NCBI GenBank assembly: GCA_937996685.1
Contig: CALKUP010000016.1
Location: 18,284 to 82,283, forward strand
Direction: 5' to 3'
DNA: 64,000 nt
Source: an uncultured bacterium
GTDB lineage: Bacteria > Patescibacteriota > Patescibacteriia > UBA9570 > XYC2-FULL-38-9
Below, one piece after another: positions 3,070 to 28,295 of this stretch. A model generated the notes under the pieces. It was not told the origin of the DNA. It ran no database searches and saw nothing but the letters and a program-made list of their open reading frames with translations. Position 1 is the stretch's first letter; each line of letters starts with the position of its first letter. A program made the translations under genes and the position numbers.

Positions 3070-4149
3070 TTATCCTTCTTGTTGTAGATCGCTTTTGTAT
3101 TTAACTTCGTACATTTGAATGAGCGCGAAGAAGAAGGCCGCGATCATAGGGCCGATAACAACGCCAGAAATGCCGAACATGCCGATACCACCAATCGTTG
3201 CAAACAAAATCATCACTGGATGCATTTGCAAATCTTTGCCAACGAGTGGTCCACGCAGAACGTTATCGATAAGCCCAATAATAATCATGCCGAGGAGAAT
3301 CACACCGACTTTCCACCAGATGGCATTGATTGCGAAAAAAATTGCAACAGGAATTAGTACAAGCGCAGGGCCAACTGCTGGGATAATGCAGAGTAAAATC
3401 ATAATGAGTCCCCAGAAGGCGCTTGATGGCACACCGCAGATCAATAAAAAGATACCGCCGAGACTGCCTTGAATCACGCCGATTAAAAATGTGCCCTTGA
3501 GGGTTGCGCGCGCTGTGGAGACAAATTTTTTATAGAGAATGCGTTCGTTGTCGTCTCCAAATGGGAGGAGTTCCATAAATCGCTTGAGCCATTCTTCCCC
3601 GTCTTTCAAAAAGAAAAAGAGACAATAGAGCATGATGGCAAATGTGACGATGCCTTGTAGGGCGCTCATCGAACCTTGTCGTGCAATAGAGAGGCTGTTT
3701 TTTGCAACGCTGTTCACAATGCTGGCAGTGCGTTCTTTGACGTTGATTTGTGATCCGTATTTTTCAACGAGCGGTTGGTGAAGAATAGTGTCGATTTCAT
3801 TTTGCGCAACTTCGATGGTTGCAGGGTTTGTGGCATATTCGTATGTGCTGATTGATTGCCGAACAACCAATGTAATAATGCCGGCAGTTGGGAGAAGAAC
3901 GCCGATAAAAATAATCAACATTGTGAGGAGGCTACTGACTGCTTGCCGTTTTGTGACATGCAGAATCCGTGTGTACAGTGGGTGAAACAGTGCAGCAACA
4001 ACACCAGCCCAGAAGAGGCTCATGATATACGGCGCGGTCATGGTGTAGAGCGCCCAGCCGACAGCTGCTAGGACAATAAAAAAGCTGACGGTTTGCACGG
4101 TGCGAAATTCGTTTCGTATATTCATAAAAAAACAATAAAAATCAATCAA
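3070..4149 (-). CDS. AI-2E family transporter (UPF0118/PerM-like) membrane protein
   Basis: 359 aa, ~8 TM helices, overall similarity to PF01594-type permeases. Alternative start MNIRNEF at 4125. Confidence 0.55.
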   Translation of the reverse strand: MIDFYCFFMNIRNEFRTVQTVSFFIVLAAVGWALYTMTAPYIMSLFWAGVVAALFHPLYTRILHVTKRQAVSSLLTMLIIFIGVLLPTAGIITLVVRQSISTYEYATNPATIEVAQNEIDTILHQPLVEKYGSQINVKERTASIVNSVAKNSLSIARQGSMSALQGIVTFAIMLYCLFFFLKDGEEWLKRFMELLPFGDDNERILYKKFVSTARATLKGTFLIGVIQGSLGGIFLLICGVPSSAFWGLIMILLCIIPAVGPALVLIPVAIFFAINAIWWKVGVILLGMIIIGLIDNVLRGPLVGKDLQMHPVMILFATIGGIGMFGISGVVIGPMIAAFFFALIQMYEVKYKSDLQQEG

Positions 4150-4427
4150 TTGGCTCTTGTTCGTATGATACGCACGAATCAGTAATTATTCAAGGAAAGA
4201 AGGGGATGTACCCCTTGACATTTTACTGTTTTTCCTGTACGTTGCCGCCCGCAAACGCCCTAAAAAATAGGGATGTTGGGATAGATAGCTGCAAGCACTG
4301 TTTTTACAAGATGACCGTTGCAATTTGTAAAAAGAGTGCTCGTGGATAGGCCATTCCTCGGGTTGCTGTGCATTTGTAAAAAAGCGCGTGGCATCAACAG
4401 GCTCATTAACATGATAGAGGTTCGCCA

Positions 4428-5810
4428 ATGCGAAGCATTCTCAAATTGTTCGCGGTGGTCGCCGCTCTGGCCTTCGCGCTCGCCTGCAATGGCGGGAGCA
4501 CGAAGGACAGCGCTTTCGACACGTCGGTCGACACCGACACGCCTTACGTGGACGATGATGCTGATCAGTGGTCACCTGATCAAGGCGACTGCGATGACAG
4601 CAACGCGGCCATCAACCCCGCTTCTGATGAGGTGCGGGGCGACGGCATCGACAACGATTGTGATGGTGCTGACTTGCGCCTGAGCTACTCTGATCCGACC
4701 ACGTACGGCGGGTACAACGGCTGGCTGGTCGAGTCCGCGGCTGGTACCGCCTTTAGCTGCTTCGCCAATGTCACGGCGGGCGTCGGCGGCGTCGTGCGGT
4801 GCTTGCCGCTTGAAGACAGCGCCAACGTGTTGGATCCGAGCGATGCGGCGGTCACCTTCACCGGTGATGTCGACATGACGCTTGGAACCGGAGGCTCCGT
4901 CTTCTCGGATCAGTACTTCTGTCTCGGTGGAAGTGAATTCAACGCCGAGAGGGGTGTCATGGGTTGCTGGGGTCTTGGAATCCTGGATGTTCCGGGTGAC
5001 TACACCTTCGACGACGCGGTCTTCACCATCTCCGGTGTGAATCCCGGGGATTATGTTGACCGCCACTGGTGGGCGGACGTCACCGGAGACAACCGCATCG
5101 ACCTCGTCGTCAGCGGCGGCGCCCGCTACTGGGTCTTCGCAGACCTGATGTCCCTTTCTGGGGGTCTCACGCTCGACGACGCGGTCTTCTCGGTAGACAT
5201 CTGCCCGCAGGGAGGCTGCACCATCTTCGTGGGCGAGGAGGCTGCGTTTGCTTTTCCCGCGAATGCGCCGACCATGGTCTTCTCCGATTACCAGCAGGAG
5301 ACGGCGCCAACCGGCCAGGGCGTGCTCTACGCTATGGACCTTCCGCTCACCCCCGCTTCTCAGCCGGTTGAGATCGATCGCGCTCGGCCGGGTCATGTTC
5401 TTGGTTTTCGTGTCGCTACCCTCGAATTCGGGTCCGTGTATTACGTTACGACCGGCACCGGCTTCCGGGAGTACCTGTACGACGGCGCCTCCTGGACGGT
5501 TGAGGAACATGACCTTGGGTTCTCAACCTTGATTCCATACGACGTTGGCATGGACTGGTTCAGGTGCGAATCGGGCATGGCGCTGGCTGTTACCGAGGTT
5601 GAGTCTGGGCAAGGGCTCATCTTCCAAAATGGAGCCGTTCAGGCGACCATCCTCTTGGAGGTTGGCTGTGGCACGGTCGTGTACGGCGAAGAAAACGGTT
5701 CTCATATCCTGACGATGTGTCAGGATCTGGGTGATCGGAACCAGGGACGCGCGCCCTCCGGTGACGGCGGGAACGTGTACCAAGTGGAAACCTTGCATTC
5801 GCCTCTCTAG
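4428..5810 (+). CDS. GC-rich putative lipoprotein with MopE-like Cys/Asp metal-binding motif and FG-GAP/VCBS-like region
   Basis: Lipoprotein signal (LAFALAC). DQGDCDDSNAAINPASDEVRGDGIDNDCDGADL resembles the 'putative metal-binding motif' of MopE-type proteins. HWWADVTGDNRIDLVVSG is FG-GAP-like. Local GC is far above the flanks. Confidence 0.5.
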   Translation: MRSILKLFAVVAALAFALACNGGSTKDSAFDTSVDTDTPYVDDDADQWSPDQGDCDDSNAAINPASDEVRGDGIDNDCDGADLRLSYSDPTTYGGYNGWLVESAAGTAFSCFANVTAGVGGVVRCLPLEDSANVLDPSDAAVTFTGDVDMTLGTGGSVFSDQYFCLGGSEFNAERGVMGCWGLGILDVPGDYTFDDAVFTISGVNPGDYVDRHWWADVTGDNRIDLVVSGGARYWVFADLMSLSGGLTLDDAVFSVDICPQGGCTIFVGEEAAFAFPANAPTMVFSDYQQETAPTGQGVLYAMDLPLTPASQPVEIDRARPGHVLGFRVATLEFGSVYYVTTGTGFREYLYDGASWTVEEHDLGFSTLIPYDVGMDWFRCESGMALAVTEVESGQGLIFQNGAVQATILLEVGCGTVVYGEENGSHILTMCQDLGDRNQGRAPSGDGGNVYQVETLHSPL

Positions 5811-5905
5811 GAGGCGGCAAGAAGAGAGCAGTAGCTGTACAACGGCATTACGCTACACAGCACTGCTCTCGGCGTAGTAAGCGTTTATACAACATTACTA
5901 CGCCT

Positions 5906-5951
5906 CGTTATCAGAGTACAAAACAATACAGCGTTGTGTATTCTGATAACG
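5906..5951. repeat. 15-bp-arm inverted repeat (cgttatcagagtaca N16 tgtattctgataacg), candidate operator upstream of 5991 gene
   Basis: Near-perfect palindrome (1 mismatch) ending 40 nt before the ATG at 5991. It is preceded by two further perfect hairpins at 5824-5870 and 5871-5904. Confidence 0.4.
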
Positions 5952-5990
5952 TTACATCTCGTAATGTGTACATTCCATCTGGAGATTCTC

Positions 5991-6578
5991 ATGCGTTATA
6001 TGTCTATTGTATTGCTGGCTATGCCAGGGTGCTTTCATGGTCCTTCTTCACAGCCCCTTGTGCCGACTGTGACTGGCCTGACATTCACCCAAGGGTTTAT
6101 GGCTCGAAATATCGATATGGGAGATGATGGGCACATCACCGGCTTTATAGAAGAGCTAGAGCTGCAATTAGAAGTTCGCAATGGAGAGGTGATAGAGCCT
6201 GAGTCTTCAATGAAGCTGACACCAGGTCCTCATGGCATCAGCATAGTCGGCTTGTGGCTCGGCACAAAACAGTCGAAAAAACTGACTGGCCAGGCTGAGT
6301 GGCAACCGACGAAGTTTCAGCCTGACGACACGGGTAGCGTCGGCCCGGAAGAGTGCTTTACCATCACACTGGAATCGACAAATCCAGAGGTTGATCTCCT
6401 CGCACGGTTGTGGGGAGGTCTTCATCAACGTGAGGTGCTTATCGCGCTGAGTGTGCTCGGTGAGATTGAAGCAAGCGCGTGGCTTTCAGCAACTGAAGCC
6501 ACTCGTACAGATGATCGTTTCAATGGAGTTGAGCGACTGTGTCAGTCACCATTCCATGTTTTTCCTGGAGAGCAATAA
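5991..6578 (+). CDS. hypothetical lipoprotein (GC-rich island)
   Basis: ATG at 5991 with a GGAGA SD 5 nt upstream. MRYMSIVLLAMPGC lipobox-like signal. No recognisable domain. Confidence 0.45.
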   Translation: MRYMSIVLLAMPGCFHGPSSQPLVPTVTGLTFTQGFMARNIDMGDDGHITGFIEELELQLEVRNGEVIEPESSMKLTPGPHGISIVGLWLGTKQSKKLTGQAEWQPTKFQPDDTGSVGPEECFTITLESTNPEVDLLARLWGGLHQREVLIALSVLGEIEASAWLSATEATRTDDRFNGVERLCQSPFHVFPGEQ

Positions 6579-6636
6579 AGCTCAACAGGTCGATAACGGC
6601 ACTGCGTACAATGATAGATTGGGCAGTGTCATTTTT

Positions 6637-7509
6637 TTATTCAAGCTCAATTCTGGTTTCAATATCACTCAATCGCACGTGGGTGATATCTGGTCGAATT
6701 GCAATGAACACAAGCCAAATTAGGCAGCTGAGAAAGACGATGCCGAGAATACTCATAACAATGCCAAGGATACGCAAAATGACACGACCGCCATGGGTTG
6801 CCCAATATTCAATTTTTGAACCAAGACGTCGTCCGATGCGTTGCGCTTCTGTTGCAAATTCTTTGGCTCCGCGCTCAATATTTTTTTGCGTTTGCGCGAT
6901 CTGTTCTTGCGTGGCAAATTGCTGCGCACGACTTTTTAAATTCTCTAGCGTTACTTTCTCGCCACGCATTTCCATTTTTTCACTCACAGTTGTTGCAGGT
7001 GGAATCGCGATCCATAGTAAGATGTAAAAAAATAATGCAGTGCCGCCAGAAGCAAAAAACAATACAATAAAGATGATGCGAATAAAGACGGGGTCAGTTC
7101 CAAAATAATTCCCGATACCAGAACAGACGCCAGCAAGCACTGCGTTGTCCGCATCACGAAATAAGCGCCGAGGAGTGTTGTTGTCTGATTTTTCGTGTGA
7201 TCCAGCCGATGAATGAGATGACGGTGCTTCGTTGTCAGTCGTTCCGGCAAAATCAGCTGGCGTGCCCATTGCAGCAATCACTTGCGCAACATCATCAACC
7301 GAAATAGACGGGTGAGCAGTAGTGGTTTTTTCTGTGAGCAATTCCGCGATGCGATGTTCGATGTCACTGACAACTTCAGCAGCATCTTCTGTGTCCGCAA
7401 AATATGTTTCAACAGACTCTAAATAGGTGTGCAGTTTTTCATACGCATCTTCGTCGATGCGAATCAACGTTTGTGCGATATTGATAGTGATACTTTTTTT
7501 GATAGTCAT
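6637..7509 (-). CDS. PspC-domain membrane protein
   Basis: DNAVLAGVCSGIGNYFGTDPVFIRIIFIVLFFASGGTALFFYILLWIAIP matches the PspC domain. Downstream of padR on the same strand. Confidence 0.75.
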   Translation of the reverse strand: MTIKKSITINIAQTLIRIDEDAYEKLHTYLESVETYFADTEDAAEVVSDIEHRIAELLTEKTTTAHPSISVDDVAQVIAAMGTPADFAGTTDNEAPSSHSSAGSHEKSDNNTPRRLFRDADNAVLAGVCSGIGNYFGTDPVFIRIIFIVLFFASGGTALFFYILLWIAIPPATTVSEKMEMRGEKVTLENLKSRAQQFATQEQIAQTQKNIERGAKEFATEAQRIGRRLGSKIEYWATHGGRVILRILGIVMSILGIVFLSCLIWLVFIAIRPDITHVRLSDIETRIELE

Positions 7510-8808: not shown

Positions 8809-9786
8809 TTATTCCGCTTGCCGAGTTTTAATATTCCATTTTTTTACAACGCCCGCACGATGTTTTGTTGAGCATTCTTCGCTGCATGCACCGTTGCTAT
8901 CTTCAGCGCACGTATCACATAAAATCACCATTTTGTTACATTCTGCGTTTGAGCAGTTGTAATAGGTGTCACAGGCAGTGTCACAAAAGTCACAAGTGGA
9001 AATAATTGTGTGATGTTCGTCATCATTGAGTTGGACTTGGGTGCGATCATCAAATACATACAAACTGCCTTCCCATAAACCATCTGGAATTTCCGCAGTG
9101 TAATTCACAATGCCGTCTTGGAGTGAATAGACCTCTTCCGCTTCTTTGAGTGAGTCAACGTAGATCGATGATTTTTCACAACGAATATTTCCATTGCAAT
9201 ACATCAAGACTTTTTTGCCGCGGACCACGTCTTTGTGCTGATCCATCCATTCTGGAAAATCACGGAAGTGGTCAATATCTGGTGTGATCGCATTTTTGAA
9301 TCGACCAATGCGCGCTTCAAAGTTGTTTCGGGCATCGAGAATAACGACGTTATCTTCTTGCATCATGTCGTGAAATTCTTTCGGGCTCAGTTTTTGTGGG
9401 ACGATTGTTTCGTCATATTCTTTGGCTTTTCCAGATGCGACAATTTCTGAACGGACTTTGACGCGAATGCCAGGGAACGGATTTTTGTGATAATACTCTT
9501 TTTTGAAAAAAATATCAGAAAAGCGTGGGTCAGCATGCATGGTGCGGATATATTCTTCTGTGTCTGCATCCAGTCCAGCCAGGGTTCCGTTGATTCCTTC
9601 TGCACTAATCAGGGTTCGGCCCTTCAAATTGAGTTGCGCCATGAGTGTCTTTTGGGAGTCACGCAGCGCTTCAGGATCGGCAATATCGGTGTATTTATAA
9701 AACAACAGAATGGTGTATGGTCGGTCGGGTGTTTGGATGTCAGCTTTCATAGAAATAGAGTGTACTATGACTTGACATTTTGTCAA
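8809..9786 (-). CDS. UPF0176/TrhO-like rhodanese-domain protein (tRNA U34 hydroxylase family) with Cys-rich C-terminal extension
   Basis: N-terminal ILLFYKY...LKGRTLISAEGINGTL. Rhodanese core ...VLMYCNGNIRCEKSS. C-terminal tail with ~12 Cys (CDFCDTACDTYYNCSNAECNKMVILCDTCAEDSNGACSEECS). Alternative start MKADIQ at 9750. Confidence 0.65.
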   Translation of the reverse strand: MTKCQVIVHSISMKADIQTPDRPYTILLFYKYTDIADPEALRDSQKTLMAQLNLKGRTLISAEGINGTLAGLDADTEEYIRTMHADPRFSDIFFKKEYYHKNPFPGIRVKVRSEIVASGKAKEYDETIVPQKLSPKEFHDMMQEDNVVILDARNNFEARIGRFKNAITPDIDHFRDFPEWMDQHKDVVRGKKVLMYCNGNIRCEKSSIYVDSLKEAEEVYSLQDGIVNYTAEIPDGLWEGSLYVFDDRTQVQLNDDEHHTIISTCDFCDTACDTYYNCSNAECNKMVILCDTCAEDSNGACSEECSTKHRAGVVKKWNIKTRQAE

Positions 9787-9866
9787 AAATCAGCTACAGA
9801 AGCGATAGCTCACACCATGCACAGGCAATGATTGCTTGTTGTTTCCGTGGGTGTTCTGAGGATTTA

Positions 9867-10682
9867 ATGTCTGCTCCCTTCGTTGTCATCGAGGGTGCTC
9901 GGGTTACCCGTCAGCCGCAGTGGCTCGGGCTCATGGACGGGGCGTTGCTTCGTATCGGTGAGGAGGTTCACTTGGACGGGAATCGGCATACCGTCCCGAT
10001 CATCGGGCTGTCTGGACCCGAGGCCCGTGTTGGGCTTGATGCCGCCCATGTCACGTTCAGTCACTCCGGGCGATACGTCGCTTGGAGTGTGGGCATGACC
10101 TTGTTGGTCTTTGACCGAAATACCGGCGCGACTTTTGAAGTTCCGCTGTCTACGACGGAACGAAGCGTCACTGTACATGGGGTCAAGTGGATCGGTGAAA
10201 GCGAGATTCATGTGGACTGCACAGGATCGTGCGGACACCGGTGTCAGCAGTACCTTTTCTACAAGGGCCTGTCGTATAAAACATCCGCGCTTCCAGAAGC
10301 GGTTAAGCCGCTGGTGCTGGACGACCGGACTTCGCATGAGTTTCAGCAGACGACGCATGCGGCATTTAGTGCAAGGCTGAATGCCTTTGACGCTCGAACG
10401 GGGCTGATGGCCGCGGTCATCAAACCGGGCGAGTTGACTGTCTGGGACCTTGAGCGGTGGATCCGGCATCAGCTCGGAACCAACTTCAGCACCTACCAGT
10501 TGGGAGGTCTGGAGATGACCACCCCCAACTCGCACATCATCCACTCCCTTGAGTGGCTTCCGGGTAAGGTGCTCAGGGTCGCGGTCGCGCGGGTTGAGAG
10601 CAACCCGAATCCCGCGTTCGACGTGAGCTGCGTCTATAGCAACGGCGTATGGCACGCTGAGTTGTTGGAGCTTCGGTTCTAA
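9867..10682 (+). CDS. hypothetical protein (GC-rich island)
   Basis: In-frame ATG at 9867 with a GAGGA SD. Plus-strand composition is protein-like (W/F/Y/H-rich). The overlapping minus-strand ORF is the Arg-rich antisense. No recognisable domain. Confidence 0.45.
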   Translation: MSAPFVVIEGARVTRQPQWLGLMDGALLRIGEEVHLDGNRHTVPIIGLSGPEARVGLDAAHVTFSHSGRYVAWSVGMTLLVFDRNTGATFEVPLSTTERSVTVHGVKWIGESEIHVDCTGSCGHRCQQYLFYKGLSYKTSALPEAVKPLVLDDRTSHEFQQTTHAAFSARLNAFDARTGLMAAVIKPGELTVWDLERWIRHQLGTNFSTYQLGGLEMTTPNSHIIHSLEWLPGKVLRVAVARVESNPNPAFDVSCVYSNGVWHAELLELRF

Positions 10683-10932
10683 CAATAGGTGATGCCATGA
10701 CGTCTCCTGCTGACTCGCGTTTCCGAGCGAAACAGCAGACAACCACCACAACCGCGGACCAGAAACAGCAACAACTCGCAACTCGCGACGCTGCTTTCCT
10801 TGGTCCGCACGTTTTCAGAGCGCAGAATCAAAGCATTCTGCATTGTGAAAACTCACTACATCAAAACGCTCGCTACCATCACTGTTTTGTTGTATCCTTA
10901 TCGTATTAAAGGTAAGTCATAATAGAACAAAT

Positions 10933-14510: not shown

Positions 14511-14619
14511 ATTCACTTCTTCCGTCTTTTTGCTGAATTTGCTATAGTATAAATAATACTATTTCCGCAAACATGTGCGAGATTTGCTCGTAATACGTTT
14601 GATTATTTTTATCATCACT

Positions 14620-17600
14620 ATGGGAAGAACAACAAAAGAAGGGCGTAGAGAAAAGGTGTCAGAACCAGAAGATCAAAGACTGGCTCGCTTGGAAAGACGG
14701 CGTGTAGTAGACAAAGCAAGGCGTGAGAAAGAGAAAGCTGCTAAAGCAGCGTCCTTAGAATCAAATACAGGGACAGTGGCTGAGACTCCGACTTCAGACC
14801 TTGTTATTTCTGCCGAGGTCCCTGAAGCTACTGAGCTGATAACGAGTCCTGCTGCTACTCCTTTAGGGCCTACTCCAGCAGACCCACAACCAGTAGCGCC
14901 AGTCGAGCCTCCTGAAAAGACTGATTCTAAAACAGGTTCAGGTAAAGGAAGGCGAGATGATGATCCTCGTGATCGAAATTTGCGAAAGTCAGAGCGATCT
15001 GAAGCCGTTGATTATTCAAAGCCAAAAAATAATCTTGGTCGGGTGTTATCTTTTTCCACGGTCATTCTTGATGAACCCACTAATACAGTGCTTGTTCCAG
15101 TTGCGGTAGAGGGAGCGGAAGTGATTGAAGTACAAATTATTTATCCAGAGTTTGATAAGTTTGATGTTAAAAATCATGCTGATGCACCATATCTTGGTCA
15201 GCAGAAGATTCGTATTGTTGGTGTTACAGAAGCGGCAGAATCAAAAGATGGAAAAGTGCATTATCGGGCTATTTTAGAGAAGTGGCGAGAGAATTTTGTT
15301 GCAGAGCAAGCGCGTGTAGAAGAAGAAAATGATCAATATCTTCCAGGTGATCGTATTCACAATGTGTCGCTGGTTCTGAATCCTTCAAGAAGAGCGCCAA
15401 GTCGGTTTTTTGTTGAGCGTGAACGCAATGACAAAAAAGAGCGATTGTATATTCAAGCTGGAGCGTCAAGTATTCCGGATCCTGCCGATCCTACAGCTCT
15501 GAGCGGTCAATATGATATTGAGGTTTTGTCTTGTGCTGGTACAAAAATTGAACAAGACGGTGTTCCTGTTACGCTGTATCAAGCAATGATTGTTGAAAAA
15601 ACTGACCCGACAAGCATTGAGACTAAATATGACGCTGAGACTCTGAAGCGAGAATTGCACACTAAAAAAGATGCCGATCGTGTAGATCAGATTAGAAAAT
15701 TGCCACGTAAAAAAAGTGATTTCCCCGCACCAGATAGAATTATCGCTGATAATAACATTTATTTTACTGTCAATATAGGCTCAAAAGACGATGAATTGAA
15801 TGGGTACTTTATCCATGAAGGAAATAACAAATTTCTCGCAGTGCGATCTTTGTTGAATCTTTTGGACTCTCAATCTGGGCAACGGTTGGAATTTTTTCCA
15901 TCAGCAGAAGTCGCTGTGCTTGGTGAGTTAGGGAAGAAAAGAGAAGGTCGGCCTGTTTTTGAAGGAGTATTTCAGCACGATGTTGAATTCATTGGATATG
16001 TCAGGTCTTATGAAGAGATACTTCGAAGTCATGAAGGTATCTTGCGTTACATTGATACACTGACACTTGATGAAGTGCCTGGCGATGCTCAAAAAACGCT
16101 CATACGCTCTATTCAAAAAAAGCGATCAAACATGATGCGTATTGTGTCTGAAATGGGCAAAGGGATGCGCGGTTCAAGAGTATTGCGAGAGTTTTTAGAC
16201 GATTTTCGCTCTAACAGTGTGGAGTTGAATATTGCTTTGAGTACTGCCGAGCAACAATTTGGCTCGAAAATCAACACGGTAGAACAAGCTGAGCACCATG
16301 AAGATGATCTGTTTTTATTTGAGTTGGGCGCGTATGAACGTCGTCACCCAAGTCCGTCTATTGAAGTGATGCATCAGCGTCGTTTGGATTTGTACAAACA
16401 ATTAATTGATAATGAAGTTCAACGGAAGCCTGGAACGCGTCTTGCGTATCAAGCATTACAAGCTGAAATTGCGCAACGTAATCATGAAAGTGACATGGGG
16501 CGACATGGACGGATTCGAGGCTTGCTTGCTTGGGCAAAAGCATATGCTGAGCGTTTTCCAAGAATGTTTGATGCTCAACCTGCAAGTGTTGATGCTGAAG
16601 CTGAGAAACCAGTAGCTGCTGCCGTGTCAAAAGCTGAGGCTGACAATTCAGCAGGCGTTGTTGAGGCACCGAAGGTCGAGGTTACTGCTCCAGCCCCAGG
16701 ACCTGCTCTCGCAGGAAGTGCAGTAGAAGCAGCGGAAGCAGTGTCGCCGCCTACCGTTGAAAAAGTAGAGACTCCAGCAACACCTACAGCACAAGCGTTG
16801 TTTACTGAAAAAGATTTTGACCCGGCAATTGATAACGGCTTTGAAGATGGAACAACCATTTTGGTCCAGATTCCAGGCTTTGGATATGAGCTTGACGGAC
16901 AAATGGTTCGTCCAGATTATTTGGTGATTACTTATTTTGACGACGCTTCAGGACAAATGCAAGCAACGCCGTATTTCAACGGAGTGCCAGCAGATCGGCC
17001 AATCGCATTTACGTATAGTAGTCTAGAAGCGTTTAGTCAGATTCGCGCTGTAACAGAAGCAGAAGTGCTGACTGTGAAAACAGTCGTGCCTGAGCCTGAG
17101 GCAGCGCCAGCTCCAGTTGCTGTGGAAGCTCCTTCGGTAGATTCCTTTGAGAGTGATGCATCTTTCGTTGCTCCAGAAGTAAAAGAGCGGTTACAAGATC
17201 AAATTAAAGAGCTTGCCGCACGATTATCACGTCTCGGTGTTTCGGTAACTGAGGATATATTGCTGCAAAGTGCGATACTGCGGAGATCTCCTTCTCTCGA
17301 AGGCGGTGATCATGTTTCATGTCGAATAACCTTTGATTCGCCACGCAATATCCCATTACCTGAAGCGCTTAAAGTTAAAGACGAATCTAATAGTGACATT
17401 TATGAGGGTCCGGTATTTATCAATTCCTTGGTGATGTATAATATAGATAACGTAAAAAGTATTGATGCATGGATTATTGGGTTGTCAGATGCAAATGGTG
17501 AACAGCGTGTAATGAGTGTGTCAATTGTTGAATTAGAAAAATTAATCAACGCTAAACAGTTGCCGGCAGAATATGATGCAAGTGGATTGCGGCTTGTTGA

Positions 17601-18684
17601 TTCAACTAGCAGAATTGCAACCGCATCTGAAGCTGATCGGAATGCTAAAAATTTTTGGGGTGATGATGATTCTTCAGAATCAGGTTGGTCAACAGCAGCT
17701 GATGCTGCAGAAGCGCCTGTTGATGTTAATGAGTCAGAAGTTTCAGAAGACAAAAAAGCTGAACTGCGAGCTAAAATGGAAGAGGTCTTTCAAAGACTTA
17801 AGGCCCTTGGCGTTGTTGTTGGTGATGTACAGTCTCTATTAGAAAACGCAATTTTTAGGACAAGTGGTGTGTATTCAGGTGGATATATCTATTTACATTC
17901 TCTGGGTAATCAAAATTTACAAATTAGCCTTCCGAGGGCTATTGAGCGACAAGCAGATGCATCTGCTGCCCACCGCTTTGAAGGTGTGCTGACTATTAAT
18001 AGCTTGTTTCTAGGGTCTGGGGAAGATGTTGCTGACTGTGAGATGCAGCTGGATTCAGATCAGTCATCGTGGGAATTTCGTCTTTCTGAATTAGAAGATT
18101 TGATTACTAATGGAAATATTTCAGAATCTCTAGAAAGGTGGGGTTTTCGCTTTGTTGAGTCAGATAGTGCTGCGCCTGCGGAAGTAGCGGCACCAGTAAA
18201 AACCGAAGCACCGAAAAAGCCGGACGCAGTAGCAGCGGTTCCATCGCTTGAATCTATTTTGCCGGCTGGAAAGACAATTGATCGGTATGTCGCTGAGCTG
18301 CGACCGCGTGCTGCTGAAATAAAGAAAATGATTACAGATACTCTTGGCATGTGGCAAATGATCAGATTAGCTGGACGAACAGGTGAATTACAAGCGCTTG
18401 TTCCAGAATTAACTGAATTACTTGATCGAGTGACGGTGGCAAAAAAAGCAATTCGTGATAAACGAAAAAGAACGGATTCAGATCCTGAGATTATTACAGC
18501 TCATACGGCTGAATTACAATTTGTTCAAGAGTTGTCACAGCTTTTTTCAGATCAAGGAATTCGTGGAATTGCAGCAAGTGCAGATACGGTTAACAATTTT
18601 ATTGATAAAAAGTTGCCTGTATTGAAGGGTAAGGCAAAGAAAATAGTAGAATCATACGATGCTATTACCCGCACCATGAAGTAA
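14620..18684 (+). CDS. giant (1355 aa) hypothetical cytoplasmic protein with P/A/E-rich linkers and an internal ~140-aa tandem duplication
   Basis: ATG at 14620 (MGRTTKEGRREK...). The track ORF starts at 14575. No signal peptide, basic N-terminus. Low-complexity linkers (PTPADPQPVAPVEPPE, APAPVAVEAPS, AAPAEVAAPVKTEAPKKP). Repeat 1 ~nt 17176-17600 and repeat 2 ~17749-18170 align (RL..LGV.V.....LL..AI.R.S ... EG...INSL...). Confidence 0.6.
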   Translation: MGRTTKEGRREKVSEPEDQRLARLERRRVVDKARREKEKAAKAASLESNTGTVAETPTSDLVISAEVPEATELITSPAATPLGPTPADPQPVAPVEPPEKTDSKTGSGKGRRDDDPRDRNLRKSERSEAVDYSKPKNNLGRVLSFSTVILDEPTNTVLVPVAVEGAEVIEVQIIYPEFDKFDVKNHADAPYLGQQKIRIVGVTEAAESKDGKVHYRAILEKWRENFVAEQARVEEENDQYLPGDRIHNVSLVLNPSRRAPSRFFVERERNDKKERLYIQAGASSIPDPADPTALSGQYDIEVLSCAGTKIEQDGVPVTLYQAMIVEKTDPTSIETKYDAETLKRELHTKKDADRVDQIRKLPRKKSDFPAPDRIIADNNIYFTVNIGSKDDELNGYFIHEGNNKFLAVRSLLNLLDSQSGQRLEFFPSAEVAVLGELGKKREGRPVFEGVFQHDVEFIGYVRSYEEILRSHEGILRYIDTLTLDEVPGDAQKTLIRSIQKKRSNMMRIVSEMGKGMRGSRVLREFLDDFRSNSVELNIALSTAEQQFGSKINTVEQAEHHEDDLFLFELGAYERRHPSPSIEVMHQRRLDLYKQLIDNEVQRKPGTRLAYQALQAEIAQRNHESDMGRHGRIRGLLAWAKAYAERFPRMFDAQPASVDAEAEKPVAAAVSKAEADNSAGVVEAPKVEVTAPAPGPALAGSAVEAAEAVSPPTVEKVETPATPTAQALFTEKDFDPAIDNGFEDGTTILVQIPGFGYELDGQMVRPDYLVITYFDDASGQMQATPYFNGVPADRPIAFTYSSLEAFSQIRAVTEAEVLTVKTVVPEPEAAPAPVAVEAPSVDSFESDASFVAPEVKERLQDQIKELAARLSRLGVSVTEDILLQSAILRRSPSLEGGDHVSCRITFDSPRNIPLPEALKVKDESNSDIYEGPVFINSLVMYNIDNVKSIDAWIIGLSDANGEQRVMSVSIVELEKLINAKQLPAEYDASGLRLVDSTSRIATASEADRNAKNFWGDDDSSESGWSTAADAAEAPVDVNESEVSEDKKAELRAKMEEVFQRLKALGVVVGDVQSLLENAIFRTSGVYSGGYIYLHSLGNQNLQISLPRAIERQADASAAHRFEGVLTINSLFLGSGEDVADCEMQLDSDQSSWEFRLSELEDLITNGNISESLERWGFRFVESDSAAPAEVAAPVKTEAPKKPDAVAAVPSLESILPAGKTIDRYVAELRPRAAEIKKMITDTLGMWQMIRLAGRTGELQALVPELTELLDRVTVAKKAIRDKRKRTDSDPEIITAHTAELQFVQELSQLFSDQGIRGIAASADTVNNFIDKKLPVLKGKAKKIVESYDAITRTMK

Positions 18685-20893: not shown

Positions 20894-21158
20894 TGTGGCA
20901 GTATACGCGAGAGAGTGCGAAAAATCAACGATTTTCTGTTTATTTTCATGAATCTCTTTTTTGGCGGTATATCCATTGACAAAACAGGTGAAAAAGTGTT
21001 AGGTTCTTTTGATTTGCAATCAAGCAAATTGTTCGTTTTATTTATAGAGCAGGTGTATTTCTGTGGGCGCGCTGTGTGGCTGATTATGAAGTGATTCAGC
21101 AATAGAGCGCACTCACAGAAGCACGAATAACCGTGTGGTGACATGCAAGGAGGTATGC

Positions 21159-21641
21159 ATGTATCTTCGGCTTTGGAATTGCGAGAACCCCTTCGGACTC
21201 TCTTTTACGGACCTGTGCGTCCGTCTCGCCGAGAGAGACGATCCATACACGCTGTCGCTCACTGATCCCTCCGGTGCCGTCGTCAGGCTCAATGAGCGAC
21301 AGCTCAGGGATGGGCGGCCCTTCACCTTCTGCGAAGAAGGGGTCGGAATGACCCTGAGCCTCCTCTCTCATGAGGTGGGTCTTGGTTATTTTGATTTGAG
21401 CACGAGTGAGGATCAGCCGCTCCTGCCGGATCAGATCGCGCGAATTGCCGCACGTTGGTACATTGATGGAGTGGATGAATTGATTCTTCAGGTCGAGTCG
21501 AGCAAGGACCAGTCGCGAATCAGCTCCAAAGAAAGGAAAGAGGTGATCGACGCCTTTATCCGGCTCTGGTCAAGTGATCGCCGTCTTCCTCTGCTTGCCA
21601 TCGACGGCGAGGACGTGAATTGGGAACTCGTCACGCGGTAG
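21159..21641 (+). CDS. hypothetical protein (GC-rich island), paralog of 21878..22450
   Basis: ATG at 21159 with an AAGGAGG SD. C-terminal ...KERKEVIDAFIRLWSSDRRLP resembles ...EKRRAIVRAFIELWPQLARGKP in the next gene. Confidence 0.5.
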   Translation: MYLRLWNCENPFGLSFTDLCVRLAERDDPYTLSLTDPSGAVVRLNERQLRDGRPFTFCEEGVGMTLSLLSHEVGLGYFDLSTSEDQPLLPDQIARIAARWYIDGVDELILQVESSKDQSRISSKERKEVIDAFIRLWSSDRRLPLLAIDGEDVNWELVTR

Positions 21642-21877
21642 TTTTTATTGTGCGGGCTACTTAAAACATAGCCCGCACCAGAACTACCGCAGCACCTGCT
21701 CATTTTTTCTCAGTAAATCTCACGCAGATTTTTTGAGAAAAGATTGAATTATATTCGATCTGTTCATTTTTAATTTAGAGCAGACACGCTTTGTGGGTGA
21801 GATTTTGCATTGATGTGTATTATATTGATGCTGGATTTCACTCACAGAGCACGTTCGTCGTGCAAAGGAGAGATGCG

Positions 21878-22450
21878 ATGTTTGTTTACATCGGTCACGC
21901 CATCACTTGGGCTCAATTGTGTCGTCGATACCGCAGTCCGCATGGTGGAGACCCGTACGGTCTTCATCTTCCTGTTGATCGATTGGATTGGAAGCTGACT
22001 CGTAAGCAGCGGTCGAGCGTCGTAGACGGCATCTACGTGGTGAGTGAGCATCAGGCTCGAACCTGGGCAGAGTTCACCATCAACGATGGCGCAGGAGGTT
22101 TGTTCTTCAGTTGTGAGGAGAGCGCAGGAGGCTTTTTCGAGCTTGTTGGTTCTGACGACCGGCAAGGGGCTAAGGATGGCGCTGAGTTCACTCCTGAGTT
22201 TATTGTCGGGGTTTGCGCGGATTTCACGGAGATCGGTGGTCCTGCGCTTGAGGTCGACGTTGAAGACTTCTACGGCCATTCGCCTGACGATGAAGATTGG
22301 ACTTTCAAAGACGATCCTGAGAAGCGCCGCGCGATCGTGCGCGCCTTCATCGAGCTGTGGCCGCAGCTCGCTCGGGGCAAGCCCATGCCCAAGCTCAAGA
22401 TCTGCGGGAAGCGGATCCGCTACGGCGCGTACCCTAAGCACCCCTGGTAG
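21878..22450 (+). CDS. hypothetical protein (GC-rich island), paralog of 21159..21641
   Basis: ATG at 21878 preceded by AAAGGAGAGA. Acidic and W/F/Y-containing, protein-like. The antisense ORF 21842..22510 is judged spurious. Confidence 0.5.
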   Translation: MFVYIGHAITWAQLCRRYRSPHGGDPYGLHLPVDRLDWKLTRKQRSSVVDGIYVVSEHQARTWAEFTINDGAGGLFFSCEESAGGFFELVGSDDRQGAKDGAEFTPEFIVGVCADFTEIGGPALEVDVEDFYGHSPDDEDWTFKDDPEKRRAIVRAFIELWPQLARGKPMPKLKICGKRIRYGAYPKHPW

Positions 22451-22653
22451 CGTTCCTTCGGACGAATGAACGATTGACGAACTTTGAGGACTTGCGCAAC
22501 GCACCCTCAAAACCGTCAGTGCCTGCTCATCGTCTCTGAGTACGTCTCATGTAGATGTGTTGAGAGACGATTACAATGAAAAATAAAGAACTTACTAGAG
22601 TTTCGTGGTCTTTTTTGGTATACTCGAAAGAGTTATTATTGATTGATTTTATT

Positions 22654-23677: not shown

Positions 23678-24370
23678 ATGAGTCAAAAAACAGCAAAAGA
23701 ACAACGCAAAGCAAACGCAGGCAACGCACAACGCAGCGCCGCGCTTAAAAAATATGGAATCGCCGTTGTCGTGGTATTGGCAGTAGTTGGTTTAATTGCT
23801 GCCATTGTGATGACACGAGAAACCGCCGGTTCTATTTCTGATAAAACACCAGACCCAACAGCTGGCAAGGCTGATGCGGCAGTTGTTGTTCGTGTATATG
23901 AAGATTTTCAATGTCCAGCATGTGCTGGCGTGCAACCAGTGGTTGAAGATTTGATTAAAGAATATGGCGATCGTGTGAAATTTATCTTTAATGATTTCCC
24001 ATTGCCGCAACACAAAAATGCAACGACCGCAGCTGTTGCAGCGCAATGTGTGTTTGATCAAGGAAAATACGTTGAATATGCTGGCGTGTTGTTTTCAAAA
24101 CAGGCAGAATGGGAGTTGTTGTCAACAGAAAAAGCCCAAGATAAATTACGTGGCTATGCACAAGATCTCGGAGTTGATGTGAATAAATTTAATGAATGTG
24201 TGGCAGATTCCGCAACAGCTGACCGTGTGACAGAAGACTTGGAAGAAGGTCGGACGCTTGGTGTGAATTCGACACCATCATTTTTCGTCGGAGATAAAAA
24301 AGTTACCGAAACGCCATTCTCCGCTTCATTGAAAAATGAAATTGACGCAGCGTTAAAAGCCGCGCAATAA
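23678..24370 (+). CDS. DsbA-like thiol:disulfide oxidoreductase, membrane-anchored
   Basis: TM anchor, then ...VVRVYEDFQCPACAGVQPVVEDL... (CPAC active site, thioredoxin fold). Confidence 0.7.
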   Translation: MSQKTAKEQRKANAGNAQRSAALKKYGIAVVVVLAVVGLIAAIVMTRETAGSISDKTPDPTAGKADAAVVVRVYEDFQCPACAGVQPVVEDLIKEYGDRVKFIFNDFPLPQHKNATTAAVAAQCVFDQGKYVEYAGVLFSKQAEWELLSTEKAQDKLRGYAQDLGVDVNKFNECVADSATADRVTEDLEEGRTLGVNSTPSFFVGDKKVTETPFSASLKNEIDAALKAAQ

Positions 24371-24374
24371 ATTC

Positions 24375-24896
24375 ATGACACATTTCGCGCGCTTATTGTT
24401 TGATAATCCATGGACATTGTTCCTGATTCGCGTACTCAACGGCGGCATCTTTTTCTTGTTCGGTCTTGGAAAAGCCGTGCAGCCGCATCAGCAGTTTTAT
24501 GAAGTGATGAAGGTTTATGATATTTTGCCGCAGCAATTTATTCCACCCGTTGGCAGCACGTTGATTTATGTTGATGTGATTATCGGGATATTTTTATTCC
24601 TTGGTTTGTTTACGCGCTTTTCTGCGTGGGTAGTTTCAGGGCTTCTGGTGTTTTATATGGTGATTATTTCTCAGGCTGTTTTGCGTGGTATTCCGCTTGA
24701 AAATTGTGGGTGTTCCGGCGGATACATCGAGCTTGGAACAACACCAGCGCAAGTGCTGACCCGCGACCTGATCATGCTTGCGTCGATGCTGTGGTTCTTA
24801 TTTGCAAAGAGTCGTTCTGCACTTCGGCTTGATGCGTGGGTTGCTGGAAGTGACGAAGATGTGCTAGAAATCACAGCAACAGAAGACGAAGAATAA
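24375..24896 (+). CDS. DoxX/MauE-like small membrane protein with CGCSGG motif
   Basis: Four TM helices and a C-terminal ...IPLENCGCSGGYIELG. Sits between the dsbA-like gene and trxB. Confidence 0.5.
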   Translation: MTHFARLLFDNPWTLFLIRVLNGGIFFLFGLGKAVQPHQQFYEVMKVYDILPQQFIPPVGSTLIYVDVIIGIFLFLGLFTRFSAWVVSGLLVFYMVIISQAVLRGIPLENCGCSGGYIELGTTPAQVLTRDLIMLASMLWFLFAKSRSALRLDAWVAGSDEDVLEITATEDEE

Positions 24897-25917: not shown

Positions 25918-26011
25918 TGAAAAAATAGTTGATCTTTGTCAAAAAATGGGCATCAAAAGCCCGTTCAGAGAAGCAAAAAAAATCCAACCCTTGAATAAAG
26001 AGAGGTTTGCC

Positions 26012-27292
26012 ATGAGCAAATTCGTTTTCGTGCCCCACGAGTCGACCGAGGCTGCTCCCCGGGTGATTCCCGAGGGTTGCTCGCCCGCTTTGGCGCGGTC
26101 GGTTGCTGTCATGAATGAGCTGAGTCTCCAAAGCATCACCTCGCAGGCGCGATTTACGGCCGCCGGTGCTGAGGTCGGCAAAATCCAGATCCGAGCGGTC
26201 TGGGTGCTGGTCGCCGTAACGGTGGTCAGCACACTCATGTCTGCGGGTGCTGGCGGGCTTGGTATTCACCTTCAGGCGGAAGGTTTGGAGTCAGCGTTTT
26301 CGTTTCTCGCGCCGAGCGCTTGCGGCGCAGCGCTCTCGGCGCTGCTCTGGCACCGTGCGGAGCACCGGGCGAAGGCTTTGGGTGCGCCAGAGCTCGGAGA
26401 GCAGTGGCGCAACTATTGCGCCGCGCGGGAGGCGCTGCGCAAAGCGATTTTTCTGTACCGAGCCGGAGTGATTGATGCACGAAGACTGAGCATGGTTTTG
26501 CGGCAAGTGTGCCTACAGGTTTGGGCGGCATCCCCACCTACCGACGAGGAGCTCTTCGCTCGTTGGCAAAGCGAGCAAGACCGATACCTCTTCGAGGATG
26601 GTGACGATGGGTTTTCGAAATTGGAGCTGGATCATTACGTCCAGCTCCGGACTGAAGGCCAGAAAGTCTGGATGGACGGAAGGCTAAAAGGCAAGCTCGC
26701 GAAGCTGCGTGAGGTGCACATCGCCCGTTTGCGCCAGATTCAGCTCTGGCAGGCGAGTGTCCGGTGGCTGCCATTTATTGGCGAAGCGGTTAGTGCACTC
26801 ATTGGTCGCCTGAGTTTGATTGAGGATCAGCGCTATGAGTGGCTGGCGGTCGAGAAGACCATTGCCGGCTACACTGAGGTCATCGAACAGATGGCCACGC
26901 CGCTGACTGCCTACCAAGAGTTTCTCATGCACTGTGCGGAAGCGCTGTGTGAGAAACTTGCAGAAGGCGATGCTGACAAGGCTCTGTATATTCACGGGAC
27001 CCTTGAGGGATTCGTCGGCCTGCCTCAGTTGACGCGTAAGATTGCTGAAGCGTTTGTTGCAGAGCGTTTCCCTGGCTCAGAGGAAGCGTTTACTGCCTGG
27101 AAGGAAGCGGAGCGTAAGTTCCTCCCCGAGCTGGCAAAGGTCACCGAGAACATTCTCGGTGCCGAGCACGCCGATTGGCTGCGCTTTCGCGTTACCGCAA
27201 CCAATAGCCTCGAGCAAGCGCTTTCGAGTATCTTCCTCCGCGGCGTCGCGGAAGGTGCTCCAAGCGGCGAAGGCGCAGAAGTCCCCGCATAG
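26012..27292 (+). CDS. hypothetical protein (GC-rich island)
   Basis: ATG at 26012 with an AGAGAGG SD. 426 aa and helical. The 3-prime end (…GEGAEVPA*) lies inside the first copy of a 133-bp repeat. Confidence 0.5.
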   Translation: MSKFVFVPHESTEAAPRVIPEGCSPALARSVAVMNELSLQSITSQARFTAAGAEVGKIQIRAVWVLVAVTVVSTLMSAGAGGLGIHLQAEGLESAFSFLAPSACGAALSALLWHRAEHRAKALGAPELGEQWRNYCAAREALRKAIFLYRAGVIDARRLSMVLRQVCLQVWAASPPTDEELFARWQSEQDRYLFEDGDDGFSKLELDHYVQLRTEGQKVWMDGRLKGKLAKLREVHIARLRQIQLWQASVRWLPFIGEAVSALIGRLSLIEDQRYEWLAVEKTIAGYTEVIEQMATPLTAYQEFLMHCAEALCEKLAEGDADKALYIHGTLEGFVGLPQLTRKIAEAFVAERFPGSEEAFTAWKEAERKFLPELAKVTENILGAEHADWLRFRVTATNSLEQALSSIFLRGVAEGAPSGEGAEVPA

Positions 27293-28276: not shown

Positions 28277-28295
28277 CCCTCGGTGTTCCTCAGGC

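Follow-up and report, generated by a model that had tools for sequence, protein, structure and literature searches.

A conserved two-gene module of predicted surface lipoproteins, GC-rich in one gene and probably acquired by horizontal transfer, in a Patescibacteria genome

The window analysed here is a 64-kb stretch of a 155-kb contig from a metagenome assembly. It belongs to a low-GC CPR bacterium, as indicated by a LepA 61-68% identical to those of named Patescibacteria genomes and by DUF5671 and DUF4012 proteins. Patescibacteria are mostly uncultured episymbionts, and their hosts and attachment molecules are largely unknown. Two genes on the forward strand are the subject of this report. 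Gene 1 (4428-5810) is an ORF encoding a predicted lipoprotein of 460 aa, a full-length homolog of protein P0051 (28% identity). Gene 2 (5991-6578) encodes a probable lipoprotein of 195 aa, judging from the ORF and a family alignment. The divergent neighbour of gene 1 is an AI-2E transporter gene (3070-4149, reverse strand). An earlier note on this DNA credited both genes with good Shine-Dalgarno sequences. By reading, these are AGAGG (4416-4420, forward strand), 7 nt before the ATG of gene 1 at 4428, and GGAG (5981-5984, forward strand), 6 nt before the ATG of gene 2 at 5991, a start preferred over a TTG at 5934.

The N-terminus of gene 1 (MRSILKLFAVVAALAFALAC, followed by NGGS) has a lipoprotein signal pattern by reading, with the signal peptide and lipobox (FALAC, Cys20) encoded at 4428-4487 on the forward strand. 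The lipobox criterion was [LVI][ASTVI][GAS]C or PROSITE PS51257. FALAC and the LMTGC of P0051 suit the pattern by reading and Cys20 is kept in P0051, in agreement with the lipobox described earlier. A weak NCBIfam lipoprotein match to the N-terminus (E=0.0045) falls under the cut-off. The mature protein is acidic (pI 4.05, 68 D+E against 15 K+R) and contains 11 Cys. DsbA-like oxidoreductases are encoded in the window, which is consistent with disulfides in an exported product of this kind. Neither Lgt nor LspA was found among the scanned window proteins. An AlphaFold2 model from the single sequence was unusable (pLDDT 34). An antisense ORF of 312 aa (4572-5510) lies within gene 1.

The MopE-type 'putative metal-binding motif' claimed for gene 1 (DCDDSNAAINPASDEVRGDGIDNDCDGADL, aa 54-83, 4587-4676 on the forward strand) is recognised by Pfam. 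PF11617 matches aa 54-81 over HMM positions 1-27 of 30 with 32.5 bits (E=1e-7), against a cut-off of 27 bits. Proteins with PF11617 are related to MopE and abundant in Myxococcota and Desulfuromonadota. Like them, gene 1 has an above-threshold Asp/Cys motif and a predicted extracytoplasmic location. Unlike the arrays of this motif, which reach 13 copies in locus L072, gene 1 has a single imperfect copy with an Arg where the consensus has its middle Cys. Over its other 375 residues no relationship to any of the PF11617 proteins was found, and none of the 41 sequence matches to gene 1 reaches beyond the motif. Gene 1 has no MYXO-CTERM tag; a relative carries such a tag on a protein with MopE repeats, encoded in another island, and this is the sole taxonomic hint of a donor. 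P0051 keeps only the second half of the motif (DxDCDG), and this half-degenerate state suggests that metal binding by the motif may not be the core function of the family.

These features raise the question of a MopE-like copper-acquisition protein, with the module as a metal-uptake system. Apart from the PF11617 match, the idea draws on a PDB sequence search in which gene 1 marginally matched the MopE N-terminus (2VOV, E=0.039, aa 41-85 to chain residues 5-48) and on a predicted surface-anchored, acidic and Cys-rich protein. Gene 1 shares with the MopE/MopE* of Methylococcus capsulatus a surface association, predicted for gene 1, and a short N-terminal motif. The likeness is, however, restricted to aa 41-85, and the same search found no homology to the MopE* copper-binding domain or the rest of MopE outside this segment. 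The copper site of MopE is in the C-terminal domain, outside the PF11617 motif. Considering also the missing middle Cys, the half lost in P0051 and the fact that PF11617 is mostly a repeat in large surface proteins with no assigned role, we give copper acquisition a slim chance.

The FG-GAP-like repeats proposed earlier were not recovered. Neither gene 1 nor P0051 has an FG-GAP or VCBS Pfam match at E<=10, and neither internal repeats nor a ~55-60 aa periodicity in gene 1 is significant (self-alignment 43 against 35.8 +/- 5.9 for shuffles, maximum 58). The sole DNA repeat found is one of 22 nt at 165-nt spacing. What is present is one FG-GAP-like or Ca-loop-like segment (ADVTGDNRIDLVVSGGARYWVF, aa 216-237, 5073-5138 on the forward strand; ADLTGDGEADFFTSSLGRLYVF in the P0051 alignment), the best conserved block between the two proteins. 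Its DxTGDxxxD-hydrophobic pattern resembles the Ca2+ loop of FG-GAP/integrin-alpha beta-propellers (PF01839, PF13517), from which gene 1 otherwise differs in the lack of Pfam matches and significant repeats. A library-wide search also gave a weak match to a region of the FG-GAP protein P0053 (E=2e-4).

Gene 2 was originally described as an unrelated small lipoprotein. Its sequence is indeed unrelated to that of gene 1, but the two genes are linked as conserved partners and the lipobox of gene 2 (LAMPGC) is atypical, with Pro at -2. Cys14 is invariant in all three members of the gene 2 family, and Pro or His occupies -2 in two of them. C122 and C184 are also invariant. Gene 2 is under purifying selection relative to its counterpart in locus L074 (dN/dS = 0.22). 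An AlphaFold2 model from the 3-sequence alignment was unusable (pLDDT 33), and a marginal PDB match to a TCR V-domain (E=0.02) was taken as noise.

The partnership of the two genes is apparent from their homologs. The alignment of P0051 with gene 1 runs from signal peptide to tail and takes in several Cys (E=1.1e-7 in a search of 1.84 billion proteins and 3e-17 in the pairwise comparison). Directly 3' of P0051 in L076, L077 and L078 is a 201-aa gene whose product shares 42% identity with that of gene 2. The pair thus forms a conserved two-gene module, adjacent and in the same order in the distantly related L076, whose organism has an FtsW only 33% identical to that of the window organism. The contexts differ: AI-2E, module, PspC-PadR in the window and PrfA-NTP_transferase, module, PrmC-DUF3048-L25 in L076. 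The module is extremely rare. A search of 5.8 billion protein clusters with gene 1 returned itself and motif-only matches, and the gene 2 profile has three members. Only three lineages among these clusters have the module. A scan of 185,579 GTDB species representatives with gene 1 did not find it. The gene 2 family was absent from IMG/VR, and PHROGs and NCBIfam gave nothing over cut-off for all seven island proteins.

The best matches had been expected in high-GC taxa, and this expectation failed. The sole homologs beyond the motif are in the L076-type genome of ~0.53-0.55 GC, in which the module is GC-richer than the genome and hence atypical too. No high-GC donor of the module was found. P0002 and P0004, the best MopE-motif matches, were considered as donors and rejected, as they match in the motif only and come from compositionally uniform genomes of 0.43 and 0.56 GC.

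Gene 1 ends in a 43-codon tail (5678-5810, forward strand) that is common to L074 and homologous to the C-terminus of P0051. In place of the gene 1 body, L074 has a GC-rich, truncated response-regulator receiver fragment fused to a gene 1-type tail. The fusion point is a 15-nt identical stretch (5678-5692), known from one junction, where a 1-kb contig ends. The tails are 86% identical in nucleotides with a dN/dS of 0.16. The homologous tail of P0051 led us to reject the idea that the tail is what remains of a receiver domain.

The replacement implies that gene 1 is dispensable in L074 and bears on whether gene 1 is a functional gene at all. It might instead be captured DNA from DNA scavenging, left open because GC-rich sequence has few stop codons. 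Such DNA does yield long spurious ORFs, of which the antisense ORF in gene 1 is an example, and gene 1 has no family or structure matches. Against this stand the full-length homology to P0051, extending over the signal peptide, lipobox Cys, several other Cys and the tail, as well as the conservation of the partner gene 2 and the low dN/dS of the tail. The proper Shine-Dalgarno sequence, the start at the exact GC boundary and the in-frame order GC3 > GC1 > GC2 also speak for a real gene. A functionless gene 1 is very unlikely in our judgement.

The divergent intergenic region (4150-4427, GC 0.44) between the AI-2E transporter gene and gene 1 is the presumed promoter and contains an inverted repeat (4294-4309/4325-4340). 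A sigma-70 scan of this region gave nothing on the + strand, so that the module promoter is placed there by presumption. The spacer between gene 1 and gene 2 (5811-5990) contains three tandem hairpins (5824-5870, 5871-5904 and 5906-5951) with a folding energy of -72.6 kcal/mol (z=-7.2), and both strands fold equally well. The spacer is 96-98% identical to that of L074, above the flanking CDSs (82-93%), and L074 keeps the same hairpin architecture. It is missing in L076, where the two module genes overlap by 4 bp. No Rfam 15 match at E<=1 was found in 4000-7000, and no second three-hairpin spacer was found elsewhere in the window or in any locus. Gene 2 and the PspC gene converge on a hairpin (GGCACUGC…GCAGUGUC, then a T-run, 6598-6638) that is possibly a bidirectional terminator. 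Its folding is weakly distinguished from chance (-15 kcal/mol, z=-1.9, equalled by 9 of 200 shuffles), and it was missed by the terminator scan because its loop exceeds 8 nt.

The estimate in the earlier note of ~60% local GC against ~44% in the flanks was accurate: 400-nt windows give 0.61-0.64 over 4400-5600 and 0.42-0.46 in the flanks. The accompanying picture of a GC-rich island of two genes holds for gene 1 and fails for gene 2 and the spacer. The gene 1 CDS has a GC of 0.608 and a GC3 of 0.729, which is z=+7.7 relative to the core-gene GC3 of 0.391 (sd 0.044, n=40 neighbouring genes). Gene 2 has a GC of 0.51 and a GC3 of 0.47 (z=+1.9), so its synonymous sites are not GC-rich, and the 180-nt spacer has a GC of 0.44. 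The suggested comparison of codon usage with core genes divides the pair in the same way, with gene 1 anticorrelated (RSCU r=-0.24) and gene 2 host-like (r=+0.49). Gene 1 correlates with the other GC-rich ORFs of the window (r=+0.47 to +0.63) and with island genes of L076 and L072 (r=+0.67 to +0.74). The amino acids of both proteins are of the high-GC type (GARP/FYMINK is 1.68 in gene 1, 1.43 in gene 2 and 0.99 +/- 0.20 in the core).

The GC boundaries match start and stop codons. The GC excess is found only within CDSs, and the gene 2-associated spacer and all intra-island spacers are host-like (GC 0.38-0.44). With spacers and gene 2 host-like in GC, one GC-rich island is too simple a picture. 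The GC3 change-point falls at the gene 1/gene 2 border, which led us to reject the L074 breakpoint (5678) as its position. The unameliorated GC3 of gene 1 beside a host-like gene 2 and host-like spacers cannot result from a single transfer of both genes with neutral amelioration afterwards.

A different explanation is that the GC-rich genes are native or anciently acquired and that coding GC is maintained by mRNA or codon selection, or by biased repair or conversion, on certain CDSs. This would fit the confinement of the excess to CDSs and the host-like composition of spacers, including those within two-gene blocks. It would also fit the age of the island, which was already there before the window/L074 split (dS 0.3-0.47) and yet has a gene 1 tail with a GC3 of 0.65, and the GC3 of the gene 1 homolog in L076 (0.747), which is nearly equal though the host GC differs. 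However, the proteins have a high-GC amino-acid make-up, the genes are orphans missing from relatives, the module occurs in differing neighbourhoods, and gene 2 did drift to host codon usage within the same operon. We know of no CDS-specific mechanism that maintains GC in CPR bacteria. Maintained GC is in our view unlikely.

The surroundings of the module provide a further line of evidence. Synteny with L071 and L072 (small DUF4430, large DUF4430, AI-2E) stops exactly at the island edge. At least four further GC-rich CDS blocks of orphan genes (g3, g4/g5, g6 and g7) are present in the window, making at least five with gene 1. They are single genes or pairs of 0.5-2 kb. The g4/g5 block (~1.7 kb) stands in place of 78 bp in the congener L075 and is an insertion; for this sister block there is presence/absence polymorphism, and for the target island the synteny break against L072. 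The g7 block is flanked by a 146-nt direct repeat of 92% identity, and the g6/g7 duplication contains the g6 coding sequence. Codon usage, amino-acid make-up, patchy distribution and the synteny break favour horizontal acquisition, and with the precedent of the g4/g5 insertion they uphold the earlier view of surface proteins of foreign origin.

An assembly chimera or contamination, with high-GC reads joined into a CPR contig, would imitate such a pattern. The source is a metagenome assembly, and none of the independent contigs crosses from island into host sequence: L074 runs as far as the stop codon of gene 2, and L073 begins at 6911. Exact-protein look-up of gene 1 and P0001 among contig records also gave no match. 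Yet NCBI, ENA and Logan all have records of the same gene 1 protein, and the host-like gene 2 and spacer are joined to the gene 1 tail in the independent assembly of L074. Five separate GC-rich blocks on one contig, each flanked by CPR genes on both sides and with GC boundaries that coincide with start and stop codons, also speak against misassembly. An artefact is extremely unlikely.

Horizontal acquisition of this kind has a context. Genomic islands of up to 13% of the genome, and DNA-uptake genes, have been reported in Patescibacteria (PMC12455944, mSystems 2025). The window blocks share with those islands the atypical lineage-specific DNA in a streamlined CPR genome and the membrane or surface products; the donors there were often unidentified and uptake by competence was proposed. 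They differ in their small size (0.5-2 kb), in having no integrase, tRNA or phage genes and in a GC excess that ends at CDS borders. Orphan genes without a detectable donor would escape methods that look for donors, such as MetaCHIP. As a general phenomenon, HGT islets are already documented for CPR genomes. The genomic islet is an ordinary kind of feature, here carrying a new protein family.

The fit to other known systems is partial. As in a classical integrative genomic island the composition is atypical, but a tRNA/tmRNA site, integrase, transposase and flanking direct repeats are absent. The neighbours of the target island are the AI-2E transporter and PspC/PadR, with no integrase, transposase or phage-family match; the 64 kb contain no tRNA gene, and no significant flanking repeats were found in 3900-7000. 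Integron cassettes, each ending 3' in an attC-like imperfect palindrome and accompanied by an IntI integrase, differ in that the 3' hairpin spacer of gene 1 is not repeated, a boundary motif is not shared and an integrase was not found. The search for a common cassette-boundary motif among the GC-rich blocks yielded none apart from the 146-nt g6/g7 duplication.

A closer likeness is to homology-facilitated illegitimate recombination after natural transformation, which is described in Acinetobacter and Streptococcus pneumoniae. As in that process, the L074 locus has a foreign GC-rich segment joined at 15 nt to homologous sequence that serves as an anchor (the tail, spacer and gene 2), and mobile-element genes are absent. 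To our knowledge no experiment has yet observed the process in CPR bacteria. A search of the window found no genes for competence or pili.

From these observations we propose that the locus is a two-gene lipoprotein operon, horizontally acquired from a higher-GC source, whose products may form a Ca2+-stabilised surface complex; we assign this account as a whole a probability of roughly 60%. The operon would be self-contained, consisting of the promoter region, gene 1, structured spacer, gene 2 and the terminator-like hairpin, and would encode a conserved pair of extracytoplasmic lipoproteins. The gene 1 product would be an acidic, Cys-rich and mainly beta protein with one MopE/thrombospondin-type Asp/Cys motif and the DxTGDxxxD loop, and the gene 2 product its small lipoprotein partner, in which one pair of Cys is conserved. 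Both genes would have arrived as part of a broader influx of GC-rich orphan genes, seen in the 64 kb as at least five blocks. The likely route is uptake of foreign DNA and then recombination that requires little homology or none, in preference to integrase-driven insertion of an island, as suggested by the microhomology junction of L074 and the direct-repeat footprint of g7. Lipidated, disulfide-bonded and bound to Ca2+, the putative complex would probably sit on the outer face of the membrane and contact a host cell or substrate, with adhesion as a conceivable role. Such a pair of horizontally acquired surface lipoproteins, with purifying selection acting on gene 2 and on the tail of gene 1, can reasonably be considered as a candidate factor for host contact.

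A bolder conjecture, which we think quite improbable, is that the GC-rich orphan blocks (gene 1, g3, g4/g5, g6 and g7) record captures from one high-GC partner. This partner might be Myxococcota-like, a guess prompted by the MopE motif and the MYXO-CTERM tag in the island of a relative. The captures would have occurred by DNA uptake and microhomology- or short-homology-mediated recombination into host-like, expression-ready intergenic slots. If so, block composition and protein signatures could identify the host of this CPR lineage, and the gene 1/gene 2 pair would be a host-derived or host-mimicking attachment module. The orphan cluster offers a compositional fingerprint that could be matched with high-GC organisms found alongside this lineage. 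Rare sequence-level hints of how foreign DNA enters without mobile-element machinery come from the junction in L074 and from the direct repeats around g7. In L072, an island of GC 0.63-0.66 with the 13-repeat MopE protein is situated one gene from AI-2E.

Gene 1 (4428-5810, plus strand, 460 aa), the downstream gene 2 (5991-6578, plus strand) and the spacer between them (5811-5990) almost certainly form a horizontally acquired islet in a CPR genome, one of several in the window. The LepA of the host is 61-68% identical to that of genomes named Patescibacteria, Falkowbacteria or Uhrbacteria. The gene content of the window is typical of the CPR and includes DUF5671, DUF4012, a split transketolase, TGT, a MurJ/FtsW/MurG/MurC cluster, SecA and DsbA-like proteins. 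The source contig (155 kb) is on record in NCBI, ENA and Logan. Genomic islands and horizontal transfer have been described in Patescibacteria (PMC12455944), and the islet is of the same general kind. The type of feature is already known; what is new is the particular gene family, the restriction of the GC excess to CDSs, and the footprints at the junctions.

In 400-nt windows the GC content is 0.61-0.64 from about 4400 to 5600 and 0.42-0.46 in both flanks, and elsewhere it is likewise about 0.42-0.46. Gene 1 has a GC content of 0.608 (GC1, GC2 and GC3 of 0.63, 0.47 and 0.73). The GC3 of 40 ordinary neighbouring genes (the core) is 0.391 ± 0.044 with a range of 0.29-0.49, which places gene 1 at z = +7.7. 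The jump reported in the earlier note is real and large, but the GC-rich island drawn there holds for gene 1 and not for the spacer (GC 0.44) or gene 2 (GC3 0.47). The likelihood change-point of GC3 is the border between the two genes. The comparison of codon usage with the core likewise sets gene 1 apart (RSCU r = -0.24), whereas gene 2 is host-like (r = +0.49). The GARP/FYMINK ratio is 1.68 in gene 1 and 1.43 in gene 2, compared with 0.99 ± 0.20 in the core.

Four other blocks of GC-rich CDSs are present in the window, with GC3 of 0.60-0.67 (z of +4.8 to +6.4 against the core value of 0.39). These are g3 (9780-10682), the distant paralogs g4 and g5 (21135-21641 and 21791-22450; blastp E=5e-5), g6 (25946-27292) and g7 (27575-28276), all orphans with no family match in Pfam, PHROGs or NCBIfam. 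The GC excess ends at the CDS borders: GC is 0.44 upstream of gene 1 and in the 180-nt spacer after it, 0.38 between g4 and g5, and 0.41 between g6 and g7. Antisense ORFs of 222-312 aa overlap the GC-rich genes (4572-5510, 9864-10781, 21842-22510 and 27617-28396, all minus strand) and are most likely artefacts of scarce stop codons in GC-rich DNA rather than genes.

In this conserved operon gene 1 shows no amelioration, while gene 2 has moved about three-quarters of the way toward host GC3. One acquisition of both genes together with neutral decay afterwards cannot account for this pattern. The uneven GC may mean that gene 1 was swapped later for a fresh xenolog, or that gene 2 and the spacers adapted faster than gene 1. 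Alternatively, some process may keep certain CDSs GC-rich.

The Shine-Dalgarno sequence AGAGG lies 7 nt 5' of the gene 1 ATG, and the best start of gene 2 (ATG 5991) is preceded by GGAG, in agreement with the good sites claimed earlier. By reading, the N-terminus of gene 1 (MRSILKLFAVVAALAFALAC followed by NGGS) fits a lipoprotein signal, as had been proposed. The MopE-type motif is recovered by Pfam (PF11617 "MopE", aa 54-81) at 32.5 bits against a gathering score of 27. The suggested FG-GAP-like repeats did not hold up: gene 1 has no FG-GAP-type Pfam match even at E ≤ 10, its internal repeats are non-significant, and a single FG-GAP-like loop is found (aa 216-237). The mature product is very acidic (pI 4.05) and has 11 Cys.

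A word-indexed search with gene 1 returned gene 1 itself and 40 proteins matching the ~30-aa MopE motif alone (coverage 6-21%). When 1.84 billion representatives were searched exhaustively by HMMER with aa 85-460, the one true relative to emerge was P0051 (450 aa, E = 1.1e-7), which is present on three Logan contigs (L076-L078). The two proteins are 28% identical from the lipoprotein signal through the Gly-rich C-terminal tail (pairwise E = 3e-17). They share the lipobox Cys, the second half alone of the MopE motif (DxDCDG), the loop AD-x-TGD-x3-D…R..VF, D-x-C-P-x3-C, LPLTP and the C-terminal tail.

Gene 2 had been described as an unrelated small lipoprotein, but it is the conserved partner of gene 1. 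The gene downstream of P0051, which overlaps it by 4 bp, encodes 201 aa with 42% identity to gene 2, and the gene 2 profile defines a family of three proteins in 5.8 billion clusters. The members are the window protein, P0049 on contig L074 (87% identical) and the L076 protein, which shares the N-terminal Cys with gene 2 as well as two other invariant Cys. Both genes are real: relative to L074, gene 2 has a dN/dS of 0.22, and the final 43 codons of gene 1 have one of 0.16. The pair is a new and extremely rare family of two predicted lipoproteins.

The spacer folds into three tandem hairpins (5824-5870, 5871-5904 and 5906-5951) with a ΔG of -72.6 kcal/mol (z = -7.2), and both strands fold equally well (z of -7 to -9). 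It is 96-98% identical in L074, compared with 82-93% for the flanking coding DNA, and the hairpin architecture is kept. It is missing from L076 and has no Rfam match, and neither the window nor the other loci compared contain a second copy. It may stabilise the mRNA or serve as a processing site between the cistrons, or it may act as a palindrome at the DNA level.

The module is known from three lineages only and was not found in any GTDB species representative or in IMG/VR. In L076 the pair lies between PrfA/NTP-transferase and PrmC/DUF3048/L25 genes, in an organism whose FtsW is 33% identical to that of the window, and the pair again exceeds its host in GC (GC3 of 0.75 and 0.70 against ~0.55). 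In the relatives L071 and L072, whose AI-2E transporter is 52% identical, the small DUF4430, large DUF4430 and AI-2E genes are colinear with those of the window, and colinearity stops exactly at the AI-2E 5′ end. Beyond AI-2E, L072 has a PGI-like gene, followed by a separate island no shorter than 4 kb (L072 1-4100; JGI Ga0066640_10006536; GC 0.63-0.66) that codes for a MopE protein with 13 repeats and 794 aa or more. The C-terminus of this protein is a borderline match to the MYXO-CTERM sorting tag (22.9 bits isolated, 18.9 in the whole protein; cut-off 20). The L072 island also encodes a 510-aa orphan with a C-terminus that, by eye alone, resembles an outer-membrane beta-barrel ending. The 7-kb L072 contig, from a distant relative, could be a chimera.

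Codon usage, amino-acid make-up, distribution, context and the synteny break favour the horizontal origin put forward in the earlier note; homology searches found no donor. Best hits in high-GC taxa had been predicted, but the top motif matches, P0002 and P0004, come from compositionally uniform genomes with GC of 0.43 and 0.56. Searches at the island for a tRNA gene, an integrase and flanking repeats found none.

Junctions offer hints of mechanism. L074 (NCBI JAHZTO011257416.1) is an independent assembly contig of 1,006 bp with 89.6% identity to 5678-6577. In place of the gene 1 body, its positions 1-238 hold a GC-rich fragment of a response-regulator receiver domain (PF00072 positions 43-83, E = 1e-6), joined in frame to the 43-codon tail of gene 1; the switch occurs at a 15-nt identity, GTGTACGGCGAAGAA. 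Because P0051 bears a homologous tail, the window has the intact form of the family and L074 a replacement. Being at one end of a contig of 1 kb, the junction is provisional and may be a real recombination or a contig-end artefact. One homologous anchor and a microhomology junction match what homology-facilitated illegitimate recombination would leave after uptake of DNA, and foreign DNA may have entered by this route. Competence and pilus genes are reported to be prevalent in Patescibacteria (PMC12455944); none was found within the window.

In the congener contig L075 (CAZWCN010000028.1, ~75% nt identity) SmpB directly adjoins the aldolase gene. The 1.7-kb g4/g5 block (20905-22603) is an insertion relative to L075, since 78 bp (L075 5024-5102) stand in its place as a clean insertion/deletion polymorphism. 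The orphan g7 lies between the copies of a 146-nt direct repeat (27254-27400 and 28282-28429; 92% identity, 1029-nt spacing) that consists of the last ~13 codons of g6 and a terminator-like hairpin with a T-run. This repeat is the footprint of a single-crossover integration or of a duplication plus insertion.

Asp-rich motifs of the MopE/thrombospondin type and DxTGDxxxD loops are of kinds that bind Ca2+ in other surface proteins. A single Cys pair is invariant in gene 2, and DsbA-like oxidoreductases are encoded nearby. A Ca2+-stabilised, disulfide-bonded surface lipoprotein complex for contact with a host or substrate is the best guess at the function, though of fairly low confidence. A copper-acquisition role for gene 1 is unsupported because the match to MopE (PDB 2VOV, E = 0.04) stops at the motif, with no likeness beyond it. 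AlphaFold pLDDT values of 34 and 33 for genes 1 and 2 are too low for fold-based inference, which goes no further than "mostly β".

On the two sides of the g6/g7 block (23678-24896 and 28466-29293) are genes for two DsbA-like proteins with a thioredoxin fold and for a membrane protein of the DoxX/MauE type. This set looks like an extracytoplasmic disulfide-forming system, which would bear on exported proteins rich in Cys, gene 1 among them. The lowest GC3 in the window (0.29) belongs to ORFs of 1369 aa (14575-18684), without a Pfam or NCBIfam match, and 1457 aa (58832-63205), with a weak UbiB/ABC1-kinase-like region alone (aa 1126-1366). L063 (CAZBLE010000005.1), a GTDB representative tagged 'uncultured Gammaproteobacteria', is almost certainly a mislabelled Patescibacteria MAG because it is colinear with 33.4-53.7 kb of the window at 68-83% nt identity; in another comparison this syntenic relative gave 70-78%.
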